A stretch of DNA of 55,306 nt from a virus (Duplodnaviria > Heunggongvirae > Uroviricota > Caudoviricetes). Location: IMG/VR virus record IMGVR_UViG_650377933_000002; one strand, 5' to 3'. Positions 5,000 through 14,858 of the stretch are shown in pieces. The notes beneath the pieces were generated by a model, which saw only the letters and a list, made by a program, of their open reading frames with translations, made no database searches and had not been told where the DNA came from. How positions within the stretch are numbered: the stretch's first letter is position 1; the number at the start of each line of letters is the position of its first letter. Made by a program: the position numbers and the translations under genes.

Positions 5000-5270
5000 C
5001 TGCGGATCTAAGCGGTCATCGCAACGGTGAATCAGGTGATTGCCGTATCGTTGTGTTGTTGCGACATGGTGATAATAGCTATTGCTATTGGCTGTATCAA
5101 TACTTATTGCTATTGATTGATGTGTTTTGATATTAACTGTTTGATAGCAAAAAGAATTAATTTTGTGACTTGTATCGCATAGCGATAACTGAAGGGAGGA
5201 TGTGGTGGTTTTTCGAACGGTTTGTGTGATGAGGGGACAAAAGAAAACCCGGCACGGTGGCCGGGATTCT
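5000..5270. promoter_or_regulatory. AT-rich intergenic region with TTGCTATTG repeats (candidate OL/pL-type operator-promoter)
   Basis: Non-coding AT-rich stretch with the TTGCTATTG motif at least twice (5040..5110); the same motif recurs between the repressor and cro-like gene. Confidence 0.4.
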
Positions 5271-5647
5271 TACGCAGGTAGGTAAAGATATGATTGTGGT
5301 GGCTTAATATTACTACCTAGAGCAGAGATAGGAATTGGTTCTTTATATCTTTCCACTTCACCAATTTTTATTGCGTAGGCCTTTTCTCTACCTGAATAAT
5401 ATGAGTCATAAAATTGCTTAGAAATACCTGCGTGTTTTTCCGTCTTTTTCCAAAGAGATTCCGGTTCGTCACTTAGTATTGATTCAATACGGAATTGACC
5501 AACAACTTTACCTAATGGCATCGTGGCATAAATAACAACGGTGCTAATTTGCGGATTTTTGAATATACCTTTACGAAACTCGAACCGCTTTGTTCCGTTC
5601 AATATTTTTTCTGCAAACTCAGGCTTAATGGATAATAAAACTTTCAT
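5270..5647 (-). CDS. ASCH-domain protein
   Basis: 125-aa ORF with the ASCH signature GxKxxExR near the N-terminus (NGTKRFEFRKG); ATG start overlaps the 3' end of the upstream gene by 23 nt (operon). Confidence 0.7.
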   Translation of the reverse strand: MKVLLSIKPEFAEKILNGTKRFEFRKGIFKNPQISTVVIYATMPLGKVVGQFRIESILSDEPESLWKKTEKHAGISKQFYDSYYSGREKAYAIKIGEVERYKEPIPISALGSNIKPPQSYLYLPA

Positions 5648-6698
5648 TTATCTTGCCTAACTCGATGATCTTTAAGAACTGCTCATTTGTGAGTTTAAAG
5701 TGACTCCATCGGAATGCACGCGAACCATTTAGCCCCACATGATCTATTAAAATAGCACGATTGGGTCTCTTTGACAAAGACAGATTGTATGTGAATCTTA
5801 TAATGAAAGGGTATCGACGTTCTTTATAGATTTTTCTGAGTTCATCTTCAGAAAATACGCTAAAACGAATACAATAGTCTACAAAACTATCTTCGCTTAA
5901 AAATTCAGAAATATTTTTTACGCTCTCAACTACACATAATGTACTGGCTACAGAACGATAGCGAGCTGGCCCTTTTTTGTCTCCGGTTCTATAGATGACA
6001 ATGATATCTCCTCTTTTCATTCCCATCACAGAACGCATTCCACATATGTAAATTTTATGAATGCTGTTAGCATGGGATATATCTTTGACAATATCTGGTG
6101 ATTCATTTACAAGTTTTGAATCAGGGAATAGTCTAGTGTGATATTCGGGATAAATCGCCAGTAAATATTTGTTGGCCCTTGATGTCATTATTCGAGGGTA
6201 ATCTAATAAAATATCACCATAAGGCTCATGCAAAGACCTCGCATATACAAACTCTTTCCCGTTATGTGTTTCTTTTTCACCATGAATGTAAAATCCGTAC
6301 GTTTGGAAAAGTTTTATTAGATGGACGTGTTTGTCGAAAACAGTAACATAAATATCATCAGATTTTGATGAAAATGCATGGTCAAACGCTTTTTTTAGAA
6401 ATCGTTGTCCGCGAAGGGTGCCTTTAGATTCAAATTTGAATGTTCCTATCTTTAGATGACGTCCTGGTGGGAGCGCTGGATTAATGTCATTTGCATCATC
6501 ATTTTCTTTTAGATACATAAAACCTTCGATTTTATGCTTGTCATCATAGAGCACATAAGCTGATTCTCCTTCTCTGGCTTTTTTTTCTAACCAAAGAGGA
6601 AACTCTTTATAATCTTTTTTTAAAGAGTCAAAAAATGGGTCATTGTGATCAAAATCAGAGAATTTCTCATATTTTAAAGTATCCATTAAGTTCTCCAT
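5625..6698 (-). CDS. hypothetical two-domain protein (N-terminal GNAT-like, C-terminal PUA/ASCH-like beta-barrel?)
   Basis: 357-aa ORF, AT-rich; probable true start at the second ATG (6686, MDTLKYEKF..) preceded by GGAGA; N-terminal region has a GNAT-like pattern (..KGTLRGQRFLKKAFDHAF....IYVTVFDKHVHLIKLFQTYGF); domain calls are from motif resemblance only. Confidence 0.55.
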   Translation of the reverse strand: MENLMDTLKYEKFSDFDHNDPFFDSLKKDYKEFPLWLEKKAREGESAYVLYDDKHKIEGFMYLKENDDANDINPALPPGRHLKIGTFKFESKGTLRGQRFLKKAFDHAFSSKSDDIYVTVFDKHVHLIKLFQTYGFYIHGEKETHNGKEFVYARSLHEPYGDILLDYPRIMTSRANKYLLAIYPEYHTRLFPDSKLVNESPDIVKDISHANSIHKIYICGMRSVMGMKRGDIIVIYRTGDKKGPARYRSVASTLCVVESVKNISEFLSEDSFVDYCIRFSVFSEDELRKIYKERRYPFIIRFTYNLSLSKRPNRAILIDHVGLNGSRAFRWSHFKLTNEQFLKIIELGKINESFIIH

Positions 6699-6766
6699 TC
6701 TAAAATGAATAATTAAGTTGTTTTACTGAATGAGCACAATGCCCGGTTGATAATTTTTAATTGGTA

Positions 6767-7459
6767 CTATCCATGCTTCCTATACGTCTGCGGCATGCTC
6801 CCAATAACTTTCCCGAAGATAAATACCCGGTTCATCTCATCTTTCTCGATCGGGTCCCACGGTGAGTAGCTTTTGTTATCAGAGATAACCAGCAGCTTAT
6901 CCTTCATCATTTGCAGGCGCTTTACATGGGCTGTGTCGTCGTACAGAAACGCATAGATACCATCACCGTCGAAAGATTTAACCGTGATATCAACGAATAG
7001 AAGATCACCAGGTTCAATCGTTCCTGACATGCTGTCACCGCGTACGTTAATGATGCGGATATTTTCTGCCTTCCTACCATCGAACATGTGACGAGCATCG
7101 TCAAACGAGTACTCAACCGAGCGTAGAACTTCTACAAACTCACGGTTGATGACTCCCGGCCCGGCACTCACTTCTATATCAAGAACGTCAATCTTGAAGT
7201 ATTTGGGATGGTTGGCAGTAGGCTTCCCTAATTGTTGACCGTCATTTCTCATCGGGCCTATGCCTGATGAGAGCCACTCTGTTCGAACACCCAATGCATT
7301 AGCTATTTCAACAATTTTTGTTGAGCCGCGCGCGTTGCCGCTTGTCAGTCTCCAGATTGTGGGTTGAGCTACGCCAGACGCCTTTGCAAGAGCGCCTTGA
7401 GACATTCCAGATTGTTCCATCGCTAGGTTTAAGCGATCAGCAAGAGTTTCTTTTTTCAT
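6767..7459 (-). CDS. CI-like repressor (HTH + LexA/S24 peptidase-like domain)
   Basis: ORF 6767..7495; ATG at 7459 (MKKETLADRLNLAMEQSGMSQGALAKASGVAQPTIWRL..) gives 230 aa with an N-terminal XRE-type HTH and a C-terminal S24-like region (..GDSMSGTIEPGDLLFVD..); the 7495 start would be TTG and would cover an operator-like palindrome; no SD, consistent with a leaderless repressor mRNA. Confidence 0.8.
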   Translation of the reverse strand: MKKETLADRLNLAMEQSGMSQGALAKASGVAQPTIWRLTSGNARGSTKIVEIANALGVRTEWLSSGIGPMRNDGQQLGKPTANHPKYFKIDVLDIEVSAGPGVINREFVEVLRSVEYSFDDARHMFDGRKAENIRIINVRGDSMSGTIEPGDLLFVDITVKSFDGDGIYAFLYDDTAHVKRLQMMKDKLLVISDNKSYSPWDPIEKDEMNRVFIFGKVIGSMPQTYRKHG

Positions 7460-7569
7460 AAGTTTTAATTTATACGCTTGCGTATTGATGGTCAAAACAC
7501 GTTTTGCTATTGTTATGATTAATACGCATTGCTATTATTTATTCATTGTAATACCAATAGGAATTAATA
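7460..7569. promoter_or_regulatory. OR-type operator-promoter region between divergent repressor and cro-like genes
   Basis: 110-bp AT-rich divergent intergenic region with palindrome TACGCTTGCGTA and TTGCTATTG/TTGCTATTA repeats. Confidence 0.55.
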
Positions 7570-7797
7570 ATGACAAATCAAACCATTCAACTCGCAATCA
7601 GTATTACAGGTAGTCAAAAACGACTGGCAGATCTATGCGGTGTAGCCCAGCCCACTGTTTGGCGTTGGCTACACGGTGGCGGAATTGATGCCCGCTATGT
7701 AATGAAAATTGTCTCAGCCACTGGTGGAAAGATTAAACCAGCAGATATTCGTCCCGACCTCGCACCATTGTTTAACGCGAGTAATTCTGCCGCCTAA
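7570..7797 (+). CDS. Cro/YdaS-like HTH regulator
   Basis: 75-aa ORF divergent from the repressor, with HTH (..QKRLADLCGVAQPTVWRWLHGG..); AGGA-type RBS upstream. Confidence 0.75.
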   Translation: MTNQTIQLAISITGSQKRLADLCGVAQPTVWRWLHGGGIDARYVMKIVSATGGKIKPADIRPDLAPLFNASNSAA

Positions 7798-9383: not shown

Positions 9384-10081
9384 AAAACATCGCCGCACAG
9401 ATGGTTAACTTTGACCGTGAGCAGATGCGCCGGATCGCCAACAACATGCCGGAACAGTACGACGAAAAGCCGCAGGTACAGCAGGTAGCGCAGATCATCA
9501 ACGGTGTGTTCAGCCAGTTACTGGCAACTTTCCCGGCGAGTCTGGCTAACCGTGACCAGAACGAACTGAATGAAATCCGCCGCCAGTGGGTTCTGGCTTT
9601 CCGGGAAAACGGGATCACCACAATGGAACAGGTTAACGCAGGAATGCGCGTAGCCCGTCGGCAGAATCGACCATTTCTGCCATCACCCGGGCAGTTTGTT
9701 GCATGGTGCCGGGAAGAAGCATCCGTTATCGCCGGACTGCCAAACGTCAGCGAGCTGGTTGATATGGTTTACGAGTATTGCCGGAAGCGAGGCCTGTATC
9801 CGGATGCGGAGTCTTATCCGTGGAAATCAAACGCGCACTACTGGCTGGTTACCAACCTGTATCAGAACATGCGGGCCAATGCGCTTACTGATGCGGAATT
9901 ACGCCGTAAGGCCGCAGATGAGCTTGTCCATATGACTGCGAGAATTAACCGTGGTGAGGCGATCCCTGAACCAGTAAAACAACTTCCTGTCATGGGCGGT
10001 AGACCTCTAAATCGTGCACAGGCTCTGGCGAAGATCGCAGAAATCAAAGCTAAGTTCGGACTGAAAGGAGCAAGTGTATGA
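9380..10081 (+). CDS. P: replication protein P (DnaB loader)
   Basis: 233-aa ORF essentially identical to recalled lambda P (MKNIAAQMVNFDREQMRRIANNMPEQYDEKPQVQQVAQIINGVFSQLLATFPASLANRDQNE..). Confidence 0.95.
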   Translation: MKNIAAQMVNFDREQMRRIANNMPEQYDEKPQVQQVAQIINGVFSQLLATFPASLANRDQNELNEIRRQWVLAFRENGITTMEQVNAGMRVARRQNRPFLPSPGQFVAWCREEASVIAGLPNVSELVDMVYEYCRKRGLYPDAESYPWKSNAHYWLVTNLYQNMRANALTDAELRRKAADELVHMTARINRGEAIPEPVKQLPVMGGRPLNRAQALAKIAEIKAKFGLKGASV

Positions 10082-10380
10082 CGGGCAAAGAGGCAATTAT
10101 TCATTACCTGGGGACGCATAAGAGCTTCTGTGCACAGGACGTTGCCGCGGTAACAGGCGCAACCGTAACCAGCATAAATCAGGCTGTGGCTAAAATGGCG
10201 CGGGCAGGAATCCTGGTCGTTGATGGTAAGGTCTGGCGAACGGTGTATTATCGGTTCGCTACCAGAGAAGAACGGGAAGGAAAGGTGAGCGCGAATTTGA
10301 TTTTTAAGGAGTGTCGCCAGAGTGCCGCGATGAAACGGGTATTGAGGGTATATAAAAGAACATCAATGGGTACACAATGA
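10078..10380 (+). CDS. ren: Ren protein
   Basis: 100-aa ORF matching lambda Ren (MTGKEAIIHYLGTH.SFCA.DVAA.TGATVTSINQA.AKMARAG..). Confidence 0.85.
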   Translation: MTGKEAIIHYLGTHKSFCAQDVAAVTGATVTSINQAVAKMARAGILVVDGKVWRTVYYRFATREEREGKVSANLIFKECRQSAAMKRVLRVYKRTSMGTQ

Positions 10381-10447
10381 TGAAACAGGTGAGTTGAGTT
10401 CAAACTGTAGTACAATTCTCTCCAGTTTGAACAGGAAAGAATATGCT

Positions 10448-10780
10448 ATGAACCCTTATATTTATCTTGGTGGTGCAATACTTGCAGAGGTCATTGGTAC
10501 AACCTTAATGAAGTTTTCAGAAGGTTTTACACGGTTATGGCCATCTGTTGGTACAATTATTTGTTATTGTGCATCATTCTGGTTATTAGCTCAGACGCTG
10601 GCTTATATACCTACAGGGATTGCTTATGCTATCTGGTCAGGAGTCGGTATTGTCCTGATTAGCTTACTATCATGGGGATTTTTCGGCCAACGGTTGGACC
10701 TGCCAGCCATTATAGGCATGATGTTGATTTGTGCCGGTGTGTTGGTTATTAATTTATTGTCACGAAGCACACCACATTAA
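10448..10780 (+). CDS. emrE: SMR-family multidrug efflux transporter EmrE
   Basis: ORF 10394..10780; from ATG 10448 the 110-aa product matches EmrE (MNPYIYLGGAILAEVIGTTLMKFSEGFTRLWPSVGTIICYCASFWLLAQTLAYIPTGIAYAIWSGVGIVLISLLSWGFFGQRLDLPAIIGMMLICAGVL.INLLSRSTPH). Confidence 0.95.
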   Translation: MNPYIYLGGAILAEVIGTTLMKFSEGFTRLWPSVGTIICYCASFWLLAQTLAYIPTGIAYAIWSGVGIVLISLLSWGFFGQRLDLPAIIGMMLICAGVLVINLLSRSTPH

Positions 10781-11035
10781 AAATAATTTATTTTTAAACG
10801 ACTAAAATATGGAGGTTCGTATATTTGTATGGGCCTCGTTTTATGCTTTTTGTTAATGTCTTTAGTTTTTATTCATTCTTTTGATCTTTCAAGATCATGG
10901 TGTAAGAAAATTGCAATACGATTATTGTTGTATATTCAAGATAATGTGACCTTAATTGTCTTTTTAAATAAAAATTAAACAAAAATCATATCTCACCACT
11001 AAGGTTTATAAAAGCATACTTTAGCAGGTGTCACC

Positions 11036-12562
11036 ATGAAAAAAGCCATAGCATATATGCGATTTTCATCACCAGGTCAGATGTCTGGTGATTCATTAAA
11101 CCGCCAGAGAAGGCTTATTACTGAATGGCTAAAGGTAAATAGTGATTATTACCTTGATACCGTAACGTATGAAGATTTGGGGTTAAGCGCATTCAATGGA
11201 AAGCATGCACAATCAGGAGCTTTTTCGGAATTTTTAGATGCTATAGAACATGGTTACATATTGCCAGGGACTACATTGTTAGTTGAAAGTCTGGACAGAC
11301 TTTCAAGAGAAAAAGTCGGTGAAGCGATTGAGCGTCTGAAATTGATTTTGAATCACGGTATTGATGTTATAACTCTTTGCGATAATACAGTCTATAATAT
11401 AGACTCATTGAATGAGCCATATTCATTAATAAAAGCCATACTTATAGCACAAAGGGCAAATGAAGAAAGCGAGATAAAGTCAAGTCGGGTTAAATTATCA
11501 TGGAAGAAAAAACGGCAGGATGCACTGGAATCAGGCACGATTATGACGGCGTCTTGTCCGAGATGGCTCTCATTGGATGACAAAAGAACAGCTTTTATTC
11601 CAGACCCCGACAGGGTGAAAACGATTGAGCTAATTTTTAAACTCAGGATGGAAAGGCGATCATTGAATGCAATAGCTAAGTATTTAAATGATCATGCTGT
11701 AAAAAATTTTTCAGGAAAAGAAAGTGCATGGGGGCCTTCTGTAATTGAAAAATTATTAGCGAATAAAGCTCTGATAGGTATATGCGTACCTTCATATCGT
11801 GCAAGAGGGAAAGGGATAAGTGAAATCGCTGGCTATTATCCCAGAGTCATATCAGATGATTTGTTTTACGCTGTACAGGAAATTCGGTTGGCACCTTTTG
11901 GTATTAGCAATAGTAGCAAGAATCCTATGCTAATAAATCTACTTCGAACAGTTATGAAGTGTGAGGCTTGTGGTAATACCATGATTGTTCATGCGGTATC
12001 TGGACGTTTGCATGGCTATTATGTTTGTCCGATGAGAAGATTACATCGATGTGACAGGCCATCAATAAAAAGAGATTTGGTTGATTATAATATCATTAAT
12101 GAATTGCTTTTTAATTGTAGCAAAATTCAACCAGTTGAAAACAAGAAAGATGCTAATGAAACTTTAGAGTTAAAAATTATTGAGCTTCAGATGAAAATTA
12201 ATAATTTAATCGTTGCATTGTCTGTCGCGCCTGAAGTTACCGCTATAGCAGAGAAAATAAGACTATTAGATAAGGAATTACGAAGGGCTTCGGTATCATT
12301 AAAAACTTTGAAGAGTAAAGGGGTGAGTTCACTTGGTGATTTTCATGCTATTGATTTAACCAGTAAAAATGGGCGAGAGCTATGTCGTACACTTGCCTAT
12401 AAAATATTCGAAAAAATTATAATTAATACAGATAATAAAACCTGTGATATCTATTTTATGAATGGCATTGTTTTTAAACACTATCCTTTAATGAAAGTAA
12501 TATCCGCCCAGCAGGCGATAAGTACTCTTAAATATATGGTTGATGGTGAGGTTTATTTTTGA
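11036..12562 (+). CDS. ybcK: serine recombinase (resolvase N-terminal domain + recombinase domain), DLP12 YbcK-like
   Basis: 508-aa ORF; N-terminal resolvase-like region (..AYMRFSSPGQMSGDSLNRQRRLI..LLVESLDRLSRE..), Cys-rich zinc-ribbon-like segment and coiled-coil C-terminus; AT-rich; adjacent to emrE as in DLP12. Confidence 0.8.
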   Translation: MKKAIAYMRFSSPGQMSGDSLNRQRRLITEWLKVNSDYYLDTVTYEDLGLSAFNGKHAQSGAFSEFLDAIEHGYILPGTTLLVESLDRLSREKVGEAIERLKLILNHGIDVITLCDNTVYNIDSLNEPYSLIKAILIAQRANEESEIKSSRVKLSWKKKRQDALESGTIMTASCPRWLSLDDKRTAFIPDPDRVKTIELIFKLRMERRSLNAIAKYLNDHAVKNFSGKESAWGPSVIEKLLANKALIGICVPSYRARGKGISEIAGYYPRVISDDLFYAVQEIRLAPFGISNSSKNPMLINLLRTVMKCEACGNTMIVHAVSGRLHGYYVCPMRRLHRCDRPSIKRDLVDYNIINELLFNCSKIQPVENKKDANETLELKIIELQMKINNLIVALSVAPEVTAIAEKIRLLDKELRRASVSLKTLKSKGVSSLGDFHAIDLTSKNGRELCRTLAYKIFEKIIINTDNKTCDIYFMNGIVFKHYPLMKVISAQQAISTLKYMVDGEVYF

Positions 12563-12886
12563 GTAATAATCACTTTTTCAACCGTGCTATGGTATGAAAG
12601 TAAAGTAACTAATATGATATTAACTATCTTGAACGAAGCGCCCTGAGCTATAGTTTTACTATAGGCACTGTCACTGGATGTTGGCATTCTTGCTCTAGTA
12701 GCTCAACAATACCCAATCACAAAACAATTCACTGATAACAAACTTTGTGCACGTGCTTGGTTATGGCGAACAGGTGATGTTAACCTCTTGCCAGAATGCC
12801 ACTCCACTTCATTAAGTATCTGAGCACCGAGAGGCTGGTCACGCCCCCATTAAAAATAATTTCTTTTGAATCGAGTGAAATAGGTT

Positions 12887-12914
12887 AGCCCGCATAAGTG
12901 CGGGCTGCTTTTTA
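12887..12914. terminator. intrinsic terminator-like hairpin (probably bidirectional)
   Basis: AGCCCGCATAAGTGCGGGCT hairpin followed by GCTTTTTA on the plus strand; lies directly at the 3' end of the minus-strand esterase gene. Confidence 0.55.
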
Positions 12915-13955
12915 CAGGTCAGCGTTTGTTTTTTGTTGTTGGGTAGCGGTTTTTATGGGGGTTCCCAGGTTTTTAGTAAACCACTCAACAACTCTGTTTA
13001 TAATAATTGGCTGATACCATGTATTATCGCCATGCTCGGCCCCTTCTACCAGCACGTACTCAGCGTTATCACCGTTCTTCTTCAACATCCTGAATAGTTT
13101 GGCGCTTTGCTCAGGTGAAACCAGAGTGTCTTTGCTACCATGCATAATAAGAAATGGGGGTTTTACTCCTTTCATATGTCCGATTGGACTGGCGTTTAGC
13201 GCTTTTTCTTTTGACGCTGTGATGGGGGCTCCCGCAAAATTTCTGAATGCAGGGCCATTGATCATTAAGGCTTCGGTTACGGCAGGAGAGCGATGAACCT
13301 CCTGCACTGATTCAGGGAACCCCTCGCCAATATTCAACAAGTCAGAAATCCCATAAAGTGTGGCAACTGCCTGAACATCTGAGGATTGCTGAAGAAAGTC
13401 ACCTTTATCAAAGGTTTTGTCACCATTTGTAGTTCCCATCATCTGGGCAAGCCATCCACCGGCAGAGTCACCCAGAACTCCGATTCTTTGAGGATCAATC
13501 CCATAATTGCTGGCATGCTCTCTCAGGTAACGTATTGCAGCTTTTCCATCCTCAACTGGTGCTGGAAATGTATCAGGAATTGTTCTGTATTCTACAGCGG
13601 CCACAACAAAACCAGCTTCTGCCAGAGCCATTCTCATTTCAATAAATTTGTCATGTTCAGAAGACATGAATCCGCCGCCGGGATAATAAATAATGGCTGG
13701 TTTTAAATCATTTGTTCGCGGGACAAGAACTGACATGTGAAGCTGTCTGACAGAACGAGTTCCTTTTATCTGGGAATAAACAACATCACCAATGAGATCG
13801 ACCTGGTTTCTGGTCGGTGAAACACTAATGATATCTGCACCCGGGGTGTAACCAGGAAGATTAGTCTGGACAGGTGTTGCACAACTCCCGACCGACATGG
13901 CCATTGACATACCATACAATAGTGTTGCAGATGATAATATCTTGTTAATTTTCAT
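12912..13955 (-). CDS. secreted alpha/beta-hydrolase (esterase/lipase family)
   Basis: 347-aa ORF with N-terminal signal-peptide-like segment (MKINKILSSATLLYGMSMAMSVGSCA), HGGG-type oxyanion motif (YYPGGGF), nucleophile elbow GDSAGG, and a downstream His. Confidence 0.8.
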   Translation of the reverse strand: MKINKILSSATLLYGMSMAMSVGSCATPVQTNLPGYTPGADIISVSPTRNQVDLIGDVVYSQIKGTRSVRQLHMSVLVPRTNDLKPAIIYYPGGGFMSSEHDKFIEMRMALAEAGFVVAAVEYRTIPDTFPAPVEDGKAAIRYLREHASNYGIDPQRIGVLGDSAGGWLAQMMGTTNGDKTFDKGDFLQQSSDVQAVATLYGISDLLNIGEGFPESVQEVHRSPAVTEALMINGPAFRNFAGAPITASKEKALNASPIGHMKGVKPPFLIMHGSKDTLVSPEQSAKLFRMLKKNGDNAEYVLVEGAEHGDNTWYQPIIINRVVEWFTKNLGTPIKTATQQQKTNADL

Positions 13956-14402
13956 GTTTTACATGCCTTGACTTATCGGATGAAATTCTCTTACTGAATT
14001 TAACGGCAGTTTAATAGCCGTACAACTCGTGGTAGCCAGAGAAATATCCCAGTCGTGGTTAAGGTTGTACTTGACGGCTATTATTTCAACAATGCTTAAA
14101 GTGAGAGCTTAAGGTTATGCGTATGTTTTACAGTCCGAGTAGATTCTGACCAATAGCTTCTTTGTATAATTCTGTCAGAAATAAATCTTGGCTTGCATGA
14201 AGTTTGAGACCTTATCTTGTTTGATTATGAATAATCAATTCGCCATAATTGTATCACCGGAGCCTGAACAACTCCGGTGACTTCTGCGCTAAACGGGGAC
14301 GTTTATGCGCACACACAATCCAAACTCTCTTCTCCCTTCACAGATGCAGAAATGCACCTGCGTTTTTTTGCATCCAGCGTCTGACCTCTGTGGAGGTGAA
14401 GC

Positions 14403-14858
14403 GTGAACCTACCACAAGATGGCATCAAACTGCATCGCGGTAACTTCATCGCTATCGGCCAGCAGATCCAGCCTTATCTGGAGGACGGAAAATGCTTTCG
14501 CATGGTGCTTAAACCGTGGCGTGAGAAACGCAGTCTTTCCCAGAATGCACTCAGCCATATGTGGTACAGCGAAATCAGTGAATACCTCATCAGCAGGGGG
14601 AAATCGTTCGCTACCGCAGCATGGGTAAAAGATGCTCTCAAACACACATACCTCGGTTATGAAACCAAGGACCTGGTTGATGTCGTAACCGGCGAAATCA
14701 CTACTATCCAGTCGTTACGCCATACCTCCGATCTTGATACCGGAGAGATGTATGTCTTCCTGTGTAAGGTTGAAGCCTGGGCGATGAATATTGGCTGCCA
14801 CCTGACTATTCCGCAGAGCTGCGAGTTCCAGCTGCTGCGCGACAAGCAGGAGGCGTAA
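14403..14858 (+). CDS. ybcN: DLP12 YbcN-like protein (nin-region, DUF1367-type)
   Basis: 151-aa ORF matching recalled E. coli YbcN ([56 protein letters not shown]..). Confidence 0.8.

Follow-up and report, generated by a model that had tools for sequence, protein, structure and literature searches.

What do the three genes between ren and ybcN in the nin region of an Escherichia coli lambdoid prophage have to do with each other, and does the large serine recombinase (LSR) among them act on the DNA around it? This question was raised by a viral DNA stretch of 55,306 nt (IMG/VR record IMGVR_UViG_650377933_000002), here called the window, whose positions are used throughout. Comparison of the window with the E. 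coli LF82 chromosome and with Perceval (OV696612.1), a lambdoid prophage adjoining icd in that strain, gave 100% identity to both. A preliminary description, made from the sequence alone, had noted an EmrE efflux pump gene, a 508-aa YbcK-like serine recombinase in AT-rich DNA and a minus-strand alpha/beta hydrolase with a signal peptide and a GDSAGG nucleophile elbow, and had read them as a variable accessory-gene ('moron') hotspot, in which the recombinase could be an invertase or integrase acting on a nearby target. This description of the three genes was confirmed. They are labelled 'Multidrug transporter EmrE', 'Large serine recombinase' and 'alpha/beta hydrolase' in the Perceval record, and emrE, 'ybcK: recombinase family protein' and 'alpha/beta hydrolase' in the RefSeq entry of LF82; the exact block is already public in annotated phage and genome records. 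The gene order is O, P, ren, emrE, a ylcJ-like open reading frame (ORF), ybcK, a non-coding stretch, a terminator, the minus-strand hydrolase gene, ylcH and ybcN/ninB, followed in Perceval by ninE, ybcO, rusA and the Q gene. What LF82/Perceval carries here corresponds to the emrE-ybcK region of DLP12; the finding is real and mostly ordinary. What is new is that ybcK lies in a repeat-flanked segment of 2,073 bp that rare related phages lack exactly.

To describe the variability of the locus, junctions were mapped by BLAST against annotated relatives, and genomes were counted among 5,426 complete E. coli genomes. E. coli genomes and isolated phages were found to share the same flanks, namely P/ren to the left and, from 14220 onward, the ylcH-ybcN leader to the right, and to differ in what lies between, with at least 11 distinct contents. 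Homology with lambda-, phage 21- and HK140-type sequences stops near 10353, at the 3' end of ren, and homology with phages lacking ren stops at 10071-10091, the end of P, while all variants resume at 14220, 183 bp 5' of ybcN. From there to 14402 the leader is 94-99% identical in every variant examined. The junctions between different contents lie at 10071-10353, 12601, 12842, 12908 and 14220. In O157:H7 strain 86-24, ybcK is followed by nothing, in K-12 and the plaque-forming phage PhiR34_1 by ybcL-ybcM, in N68 by an Rha fragment and the abortive-infection gene BstA, in Turner, 55989 and TB06053 by an Rha fragment and small ORFs, and in LF82/Perceval by an Rha remnant, the second copy of a direct repeat (DR2), a terminator and the minus-strand esterase gene. 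F467 has emrE joined directly to the esterase gene, and AR_0104 has an inverse autotransporter gene and the esterase gene without ren, emrE and ybcK. The remaining contents were Rha with a HEPN gene (08_3449), PD-lambda-1 with Rha (PhiR26_1), an acyltransferase with a lipoprotein gene (PhiR30_1), and a Dam methylase gene with NinX (2G7b-type phages). The preliminary description had stated that emrE and ybcK of DLP12 are followed by other genes, and these are indeed ybcL-ybcM, after emrE-ylcJ-ybcK.

The exact LF82 block was found in 171 of the 5,426 genomes. An identical block in all related prophages would have spoken against a variable hotspot; since the content varies, the hotspot reading stands. 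The gene ybcK is present in 1,425 genomes, about a quarter, and the esterase gene in 668, together with ybcK in only ~171 of them. Sharp ends at 12908 and 14219 delimit the esterase cassette, which moves as its own unit, also in the absence of emrE and ybcK. In ~495 genomes it directly follows a gene for a 1,421-aa inverse autotransporter of the intimin/invasin type, which replaces ren-emrE-ybcK (AR_0104, locus L003, 1703-7048).

The slot contents are also transcribed in the lysogen. In the RNA-seq data for LF82 (Misson et al., PMC9928086, S1/S4), normalised counts in lysogeny broth (LB) were 22 for emrE, 9 for the recombinase gene and 19 for the hydrolase gene, with P and NinB at the floor of 5, and all three genes were just under the 5-fold moron threshold used in that study. 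In macrophages all three were upregulated compared to LB, with log2 fold changes of 1.87 for emrE, 3.65 for ybcK and 2.26 for the hydrolase gene, and emrE was induced in Dulbecco's modified Eagle medium (PMC9928086). Thus, emrE, ybcK and the esterase gene are transcribed above the silent lytic genes next to them. The block combines a position between the replication genes and the ninB...Q genes with conserved flanks, variable content and transcription in the lysogen, as is characteristic of a nin-region moron hotspot.

We consider it probable that the block is an accessory-gene slot of the lambdoid nin region, filled with three independently acquired and independently transcribed modules. The first module would be the AT-rich emrE-ylcJ-ybcK, the second a dead Rha-like remnant with a terminator, and the third a one-gene esterase cassette on the opposite strand. 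The G+C content differs by module, with 0.41 for emrE, 0.35 for ylcJ-ybcK and 0.43 for the esterase cassette, against 0.50-0.51 for the flanking phage genes. The Rha remnant (12674-12842) shows 77-83% identity to an intact or longer gene in N68, Turner, 08_3449 and PhiR26_1, and the terminator at 12886-12907 separates the plus-strand genes from the 3' end of the esterase gene. Slot contents would be swapped between co-resident lambdoid phages or prophages by homologous recombination in the P/ren and ylcH-ybcN leader flanks, and occasional short-homology or illegitimate joins would add to this exchange. YbcK would not be needed for it, and would be kept by selection without visible rearrangement of its own locus. 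Strain 08_3449 has 109 bp of the ylcH-ybcN leader (window 14265-14373, 95% identity) a second time, to the left of the Rha-HEPN cargo (locus L005, 4150-4258; 6427 onward), so that this cargo is situated between direct repeats of flank sequence, an arrangement expected for exchange by homology. The features of the locus are listed in the following table.

Features of the ren-ybcN interval (window positions)
Feature	Position	Strand	Description
ren	10078-10380	+	Left flank of the hotspot, conserved; PHROG 142, Ren-like
emrE	10448-10780	+	Small multidrug-resistance efflux pump, 110 aa; NF042984, PF00893
Direct repeat 1 (DR1)	10772-10809	+	Core CATTAAAAATAATTT at 10775-10789; left edge of the ybcK segment
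Terminator-like hairpin	10812-10837	+	3' of emrE
ylcJ-like ORF	10829-10978	+	49 aa; within the ybcK leader
ybcK	11036-12562	+	Large serine recombinase, 508 aa; three Pfam domains
Rha/P22AR_C antirepressor-like remnant	12674-12842	+	Degraded, with a frameshift and stop codons
Direct repeat 2 (DR2)	12845-12882	+	Core at 12848-12862
Terminator	12886-12907	+	Strong G+C-rich hairpin of 9 pairs (6 G-C), then a T run
Esterase cassette	12908-14219	-	Coding sequence 12912-13955 and 264 bp upstream
ybcN leader	14220-14402	+	Right flank, conserved; ylcH ORF 14305-14406 and hairpin 14342-14365
ybcN (NinB/Orf family)	14403-14858	+	First conserved nin gene right of the hotspot; PHROG 72, E 4e-52

The recombinase is the gene that calls most for an explanation. 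YbcK matches three Pfam domains above their gathering thresholds, PF00239 Resolvase (68.6 bits, cut-off 23.3), PF07508 Recombinase (53.9 bits) and PF13408 Zn_ribbon_recom (33.8 bits), and PHROG 95, annotated as 'integrase', with an E-value of 6e-120. In 13 members of the YbcK family (31-61% identity), Y7, R9, S11, Q15, D87, R88 and R91 are invariant, S11 being at the nucleophile position, and so are the zinc-ribbon cysteines C309, C312, C331 and C339. The catalytic serine region, whose absence on alignment would have undermined the assignment, is therefore present. Residues 167-467 align to the C-terminal domain of the A118 integrase (4KIS; E 0.0035), an alignment that is the only basis for a putative C-terminal coiled coil in YbcK. 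A sequence search of the catalytic domain against solved structures gave no meaningful match at E <= 1. The ratio of nonsynonymous to synonymous substitution rates (dN/dS) is 0.06-0.10 at dS values up to 0.18, and all seven E. coli alleles are intact. By these sequence features, YbcK is a full-length large serine recombinase and not a decaying relic, and it is likely catalytically competent. The invariant catalytic residues together with the low dN/dS indicate that YbcK is maintained by selection, even in the cryptic prophage DLP12. No report on YbcK function was found in the literature; the only mentions found were with regard to Rho/NusG termination in its leader, polyphosphate (polyP)-Hfq binding, and in omics tables.

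The YbcK family occurs mainly in Enterobacterales, at 40-61% identity, and the nearest phage relative outside E. coli is gp53 of Burkholderia phage Bcep176, with 27% identity. Family genes were seen as gene-only units of 1.7-1.8 kb with 92-96% identity and unrelated flanks in Mixta, Serratia, Leclercia and Rahnella, and the same gene-only pattern was seen between two Pantoea species. These shared units (loci L035-L038, about 5922-7640, and L027/L041, about 5778-7583) are sharply bounded, beginning 79-222 nt before the gene and finishing 14-56 nt past it. On plasmids, YbcK-family genes stand alone between metabolic or defence genes, and a relative occupies a nin-like slot in a Pantoea prophage.

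The proposal that the recombinase is an invertase acting on a nearby target found no support. Invertases of the Hin/Gin/Cin/Pin type are proteins of ~190 aa with a C-terminal helix-turn-helix, and act on inverted crossover sites, so that the segment is found in both orientations. If YbcK inverted cargo beside it, such as the esterase cassette, to switch expression, this might account for an esterase gene on the strand opposite to its neighbours; serine recombinases include invertases, and PHROG 125, 'DNA invertase', matches the N-terminal domain of YbcK. However, YbcK has 508 aa with recombinase, zinc-ribbon and putative coiled-coil regions instead of the small architecture with a helix-turn-helix. 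The search for inverted repeats that the recombinase could act on, suggested in the preliminary description, yielded near the block only pairs of 14-24 nt with 71-94% complementarity at best, mostly within coding sequence and at the level expected by chance, and a 16-nt pair at 11137/12563 is located within and just past ybcK itself. Moreover, the orientation of the esterase cassette relative to ybcN was identical in 668/668 genomes carrying it, including ~495 without ybcK. An invertase role of YbcK is therefore highly improbable. It is also unlikely, though less so, that YbcK serves the whole phage, as a second integrase for an alternative attachment site or as a resolvase of phage or prophage multimers. 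In Atlantibacter, Erwinia (next to lepA) and Yersinia prophages, relatives with 52-60% identity are the last gene after the tail fibres, where an integrase gene can be located, and a subfamily with 39% identity borders an island that Serratia and Rahnella carry at one shared core-genome position. The 'integrase' annotation of PHROG 95 and the strong selection on YbcK point in the same direction. Against this, ybcK was never at a prophage end in the E. coli genomes examined; it sits within the prophage, among the nin genes, and at the prophage ends at icd are genes for a tyrosine integrase and an excisionase. Perceval and DLP12 both have their own tyrosine integrases, at the icd and argU sites that are typical for them, and no partner site for YbcK was identified. 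In addition, K-12 ybcK is silenced: a Rho/NusG-dependent terminator in its leader, where ylcJ lies, keeps expression low (PMC4150792), and Hfq binds its DNA in a polyP-dependent manner (PMC10954037).

More weight must be given to the possibility that ybcK moves, or once moved, itself. The best direct repeat in the 9.8-14.9 kb interval is the 38-nt pair DR1/DR2, with 32/38 matches, compared to 24.9 +/- 0.8 matches and a maximum of 28 in 60 composition-preserving local shuffles. The two copies share an identical core of 15 bp, which in DR1 overlaps the emrE stop codon, are 2,073 bp apart, and enclose ylcJ, ybcK and the degraded Rha remnant, ybcK being the sole intact full-size gene between them. 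In F467 and Rb-50, emrE is joined to the terminator and esterase gene at this core, and the joint consists of the DR1 left arm, the core and the DR2 right arm, which is the pattern of an occupied versus an unoccupied site. The ybcK segment might thus be, or have been, a minimal self-inserting element, consisting of an LSR gene and its own site, that inserts at a dyad-symmetric AT-rich site over the emrE stop codon; LF82-type DR1 and DR2 would then be attL and attR, the F467 type would be the unoccupied site, and the element would hitch-hike on lambdoid phages. We regard this as possible but doubtful. Other findings in its favour are the position of the DR1 core 247 bp upstream of ybcK, the 21-nt near-perfect palindrome that can be read in DR1 (arms of ten nt around one central base), in a region reported as self-complementary by the repeat search, and the 15/26 symmetry of the empty site. 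A ybcK-less emrE'-ybcL-ybcM arrangement near fliE, present in 2,627 of the 5,426 genomes, loses homology to the ybcK module at the same core, where K-12 is longer by 2,083 bp. The recombinase gene itself is intact, under selection and expressed, and its family travels between genera as the gene-only units described above, alone on plasmids and in two different prophage slots. It is conceivable, if rather unlikely, that YbcK-family proteins in general are the engines of ~2-kb recombinase-only mobile units that insert at specific short AT-rich sites on Enterobacterales phages and plasmids, and are spread as hitch-hikers.

Several observations argue against such an element. All eight 'empty' alleles (two genomes, four viral contigs and two metagenome contigs) carry a single emrE haplotype that is unlike that of the occupied phages, which fits one old event better than active, recurrent excision. 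A circle-type junction (P-core-P'), which would read GCCCC-CATTAAAAATAATTT-ATTTTTAAACGAC (...GGTCACGCCCC-CATTAAAAATAATTT-ATTTTTAAACGAC), was found in 0 of 36 sites retrieved from viral and metagenome contigs. DR2 is present only in the LF82-type and 'empty' alleles, 173 genomes, and the K-12, N68 and Turner types have a single copy. The repeats are alike in direct alignment over ~55 nt with a small indel, and the left arm of DR2 reads as a diverged emrE tail (SRPH* versus SRSTPH*), so that their likeness looks like common descent from the emrE tail rather than two protein-binding sites. The overall dyad symmetry is unremarkable as well, the reconstructed attP scoring 12/26 against a background of 12.3 +/- 1.4; on this background the 15/26 of the empty site is not decisive either. 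At the right end, the Rha pseudogene runs to its natural stop past the repeat point in N68 and Turner; the LF82 segment ends inside this pseudogene, and its right junction therefore looks secondary. The right junctions of K-12 and LF82 have nothing in common beyond 39 nt after the ybcK stop codon, and nothing consistent was found when flanking direct repeats were sought around YbcK homologues at 22 Enterobacterales loci and 4 further ones. Finally, the flanks of F467 are mosaic when compared to the occupied strain SCU-301, with 3 differences in 1,044 nt on the esterase side versus 17 in 303 nt on the ren side, which fits an unequal crossover between two different phages at a short repeat. Rare short-homology recombination between the repeats explains the indel without a recombinase. 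An origin of DR2 from a donor small multidrug-resistance (SMR) gene beside the esterase gene was considered too and is unsupported, since no SMR gene lies next to the esterase gene in the three non-phage contexts examined.

The idea of an integrase acting on a nearby target is possible but doubtful: the direct repeats are significant and an allele lacking exactly ybcK exists, but this allele has a single origin, the repeats resemble ordinary homology, and most ybcK phages have one copy of the site. A slot filled by exchange between phages, in which YbcK has no local role, would agree with the absence of significant inverted repeats, the fixed orientation of the cassette, and the single site copy in K-12, N68 and Turner. 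This preferred account has its own difficulties. A strongly selected gene ought to have a function, and exchange of morons supplies none for YbcK. The 2,073-bp segment is bounded by a highly non-random repeat, and an allele without exactly this segment exists. Mosaicism requires a rare short-homology event and leaves the origin of DR2 unexplained, and the joints of emrE with three different right-hand neighbours fall within a few bases of one point, ~10 nt past its stop codon, which is tighter than random breakpoints. The esterase substrate, in turn, is suggested by family membership and gene neighbourhood only.

The cargo genes themselves are readily assigned. EmrE scores 240.6 bits against the EmrE-specific NCBIfam model NF042984 (cut-off 226) and 121.5 bits against Pfam PF00893 Multi_Drug_Res (E 2e-35), and has the glutamate E14, which in these pumps of about 110 aa and four transmembrane helices is embedded in the membrane; as a member of this family it would likely export cationic compounds. 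The start at 10394 taken in the preliminary description is the TTG of the longest ORF, upstream of the annotated ATG at 10448, from which emrE runs to 10780. LF82 carries a second, diverged emrE with 92% identity outside the window (NC_011993.1, 1974525-1976384); ybcL-ybcM come directly after it, then a porin gene resembling nmpC/ompC, the whole lying between yedK and fliE. The appearance of this fliE-side emrE'-ybcL-ybcM is that of a DLP12-like nin region of old date, of which a remnant became fixed. A simple count of emrE without ybcK (~3,650 versus 1,425 genomes) is misleading, because the excess consists of this remnant.

The esterase has 347 aa and matches the Pfam family BD-FAE (PF20434) with 153.9 bits (cut-off 26.8; E 5.5e-45). 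GDSAGG is located at residues 162-167, and the N-terminus is a hydrophobic signal sequence, both as first described. The protein aligns with PDB entry 6NKF (E 1e-37), S164, D276 and H308 coinciding with the Ser-Asp-His motifs of that enzyme, and next matches bifunctional GH43-CE and acetyl-xylan esterases; profile and triad both place it among the BD-FAE alpha/beta hydrolases. Plant-associated Enterobacterales and rhizobia have homologues with 63-80% identity on chromosomes or plasmids, and one from Dickeya was named ferulate esterase by its source. For the three closest non-phage homologues whose context was examined (74-80% identity), the gene lies in two cases (P0122 and P0125) 17-34 nt downstream of a phenolic acid decarboxylase gene (L137, 4478-6047; L139, 1315-2889), the L137 locus additionally carrying a divergent LysR regulator gene, and the third (P0123, L135) has a different context without a decarboxylase gene. 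This neighbourhood supports a role in the release of hydroxycinnamic acids from plant esters, and taken together with the family it makes it most likely that the enzyme would release hydroxycinnamic (ferulic-type) or acetyl groups from plant-fibre esters. The phage gene and these non-phage genes have only the coding region in common, at ~75% nucleotide identity, and no decarboxylase remnant was found upstream of the phage gene. The great majority of the 44 listed homologues begin with a hydrophobic segment, several that are shorter at the N-terminus being without, and export of the esterase is a reasonable prediction. Whether the esterase is a lipoprotein is uncertain: the LF82 allele has a lipobox-like VGSC motif (C25), and a lipobox is absent in 41/44 homologues. 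At residue 25, the LF82 allele reads SVGSC and the representative of its 90% cluster (1,454 members) SVGSY, and lipid anchoring may differ between alleles.

A few further observations concern the surroundings. The protein encoded by ybcN matches the Pfam NinB model weakly (E 6e-5), its 23.2 bits being just below the gathering cut-off of 23.8. The hairpin at 14342-14365, with a T run, sits inside the annotated ylcH ORF just 5' of ybcN, in the flank common to all variants, and may be the counterpart of the lambda nin-region terminators. In E. coli c1-17 (L018, 4020-4882), an IS1 follows right after ylcJ, the prophage DNA from ybcK onward is gone and envY comes next, an example of decay of the region. 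In Atlantibacter (L009, 11530-12432), the prophage whose last gene is a YbcK homologue with 59% identity has baseplate genes of the Mu type; 540 bp separate this homologue from the 3' end of ssrA, the tmRNA gene, which is a classic integration site. Two genes annotated as hypothetical lie on the minus strand at 5094-5600 and 5622-6644, beyond the cI-like repressor gene (6767-7459) and away from the replication genes. The Perceval 'transmembrane protein' gene LF82_152 was expressed 81-fold over the prophage background in the LF82 study (PMC9928086). One of these two genes may be LF82_152, and this may be an exclusion or defence gene.

Taken as a whole, the locus is a regular instance of lambdoid phages carrying and exchanging genes of benefit to their host. 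The presence of the phage esterase gene in 668 genomes, together with the decarboxylase genes beside two of its three closest examined relatives, suggests that some gut or extra-intestinal E. coli lineages obtained the cleavage of plant-fibre esters from a prophage. YbcK, present in about a quarter of complete E. coli genomes, is intact, strongly selected and expressed in macrophages, and the repeat-flanked segment with its 'empty' allele is a lead to its target. If YbcK does recombine DR1 and DR2, this would be a very small serine-recombinase mobile unit and provide a recombinase/site pair native to E. coli for genome engineering.

Among known systems, the closest is DLP12 of K-12 (renD-emrE-ylcJ-ybcK-ybcL-ybcM-ylcH-ybcN), which has the same position and flanks as the Perceval block and is 96% identical over emrE-ylcJ-ybcK (10167-12601). 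It differs in having ybcL-ybcM after ybcK, where Perceval has the Rha remnant, a second emrE-tail repeat, the terminator and the esterase gene on the opposite strand. The hotspots in the lambda nin and b regions and in P2/P4 (PMC9122126) show the same conserved flanks, variable cargo of a few genes and transcription in the lysogen. In sister phages, the slot holds defence genes (BstA, PD-lambda-1 and HEPN), whereas the Perceval cargo is not recognisably defensive, and PADLOC gave no match for EmrE, YbcK or the esterase. The esterase shares its fold family, GDSAGG elbow and Ser-Asp-His triad with the BD-FAE feruloyl and acetyl-xylan esterases (6NKF Lip_vut4, 6MLY, 6XYC), but unlike these enzymes it is phage-borne, stands alone and has a non-conserved lipobox-like signal.

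YbcK has the same domain order as the integrases of phiC31, Bxb1 and A118 and as TnpX, SpoIVCA and SprA, with a catalytic serine, recombinase and zinc-ribbon domains and a long C-terminal region. It differs from these characterised LSRs in being only distantly related to them and in residing inside a prophage that has its own tyrosine integrase. LSRs recombine a pair of matching attachment sites of about 40-50 bp, whose imperfect dyad symmetry centres on a non-palindromic dinucleotide, and use a directionality factor for excision; DR1 and DR2 are the candidate sites in Perceval. The rule that an LSR gene lies at the edge of its own element does not apply to ybcK with respect to the whole prophage, and would apply only to the hypothetical 2-kb segment. 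If this segment is a mini-element, it would resemble the IS607 family and Tn4451/TnpX in that ybcK would move itself, with hardly any cargo or none. IS607 transposases are small and have an N-terminal DNA-binding domain, and TnpX-type elements carry cargo and a DUF4368 domain, which according to Pfam is absent from YbcK.

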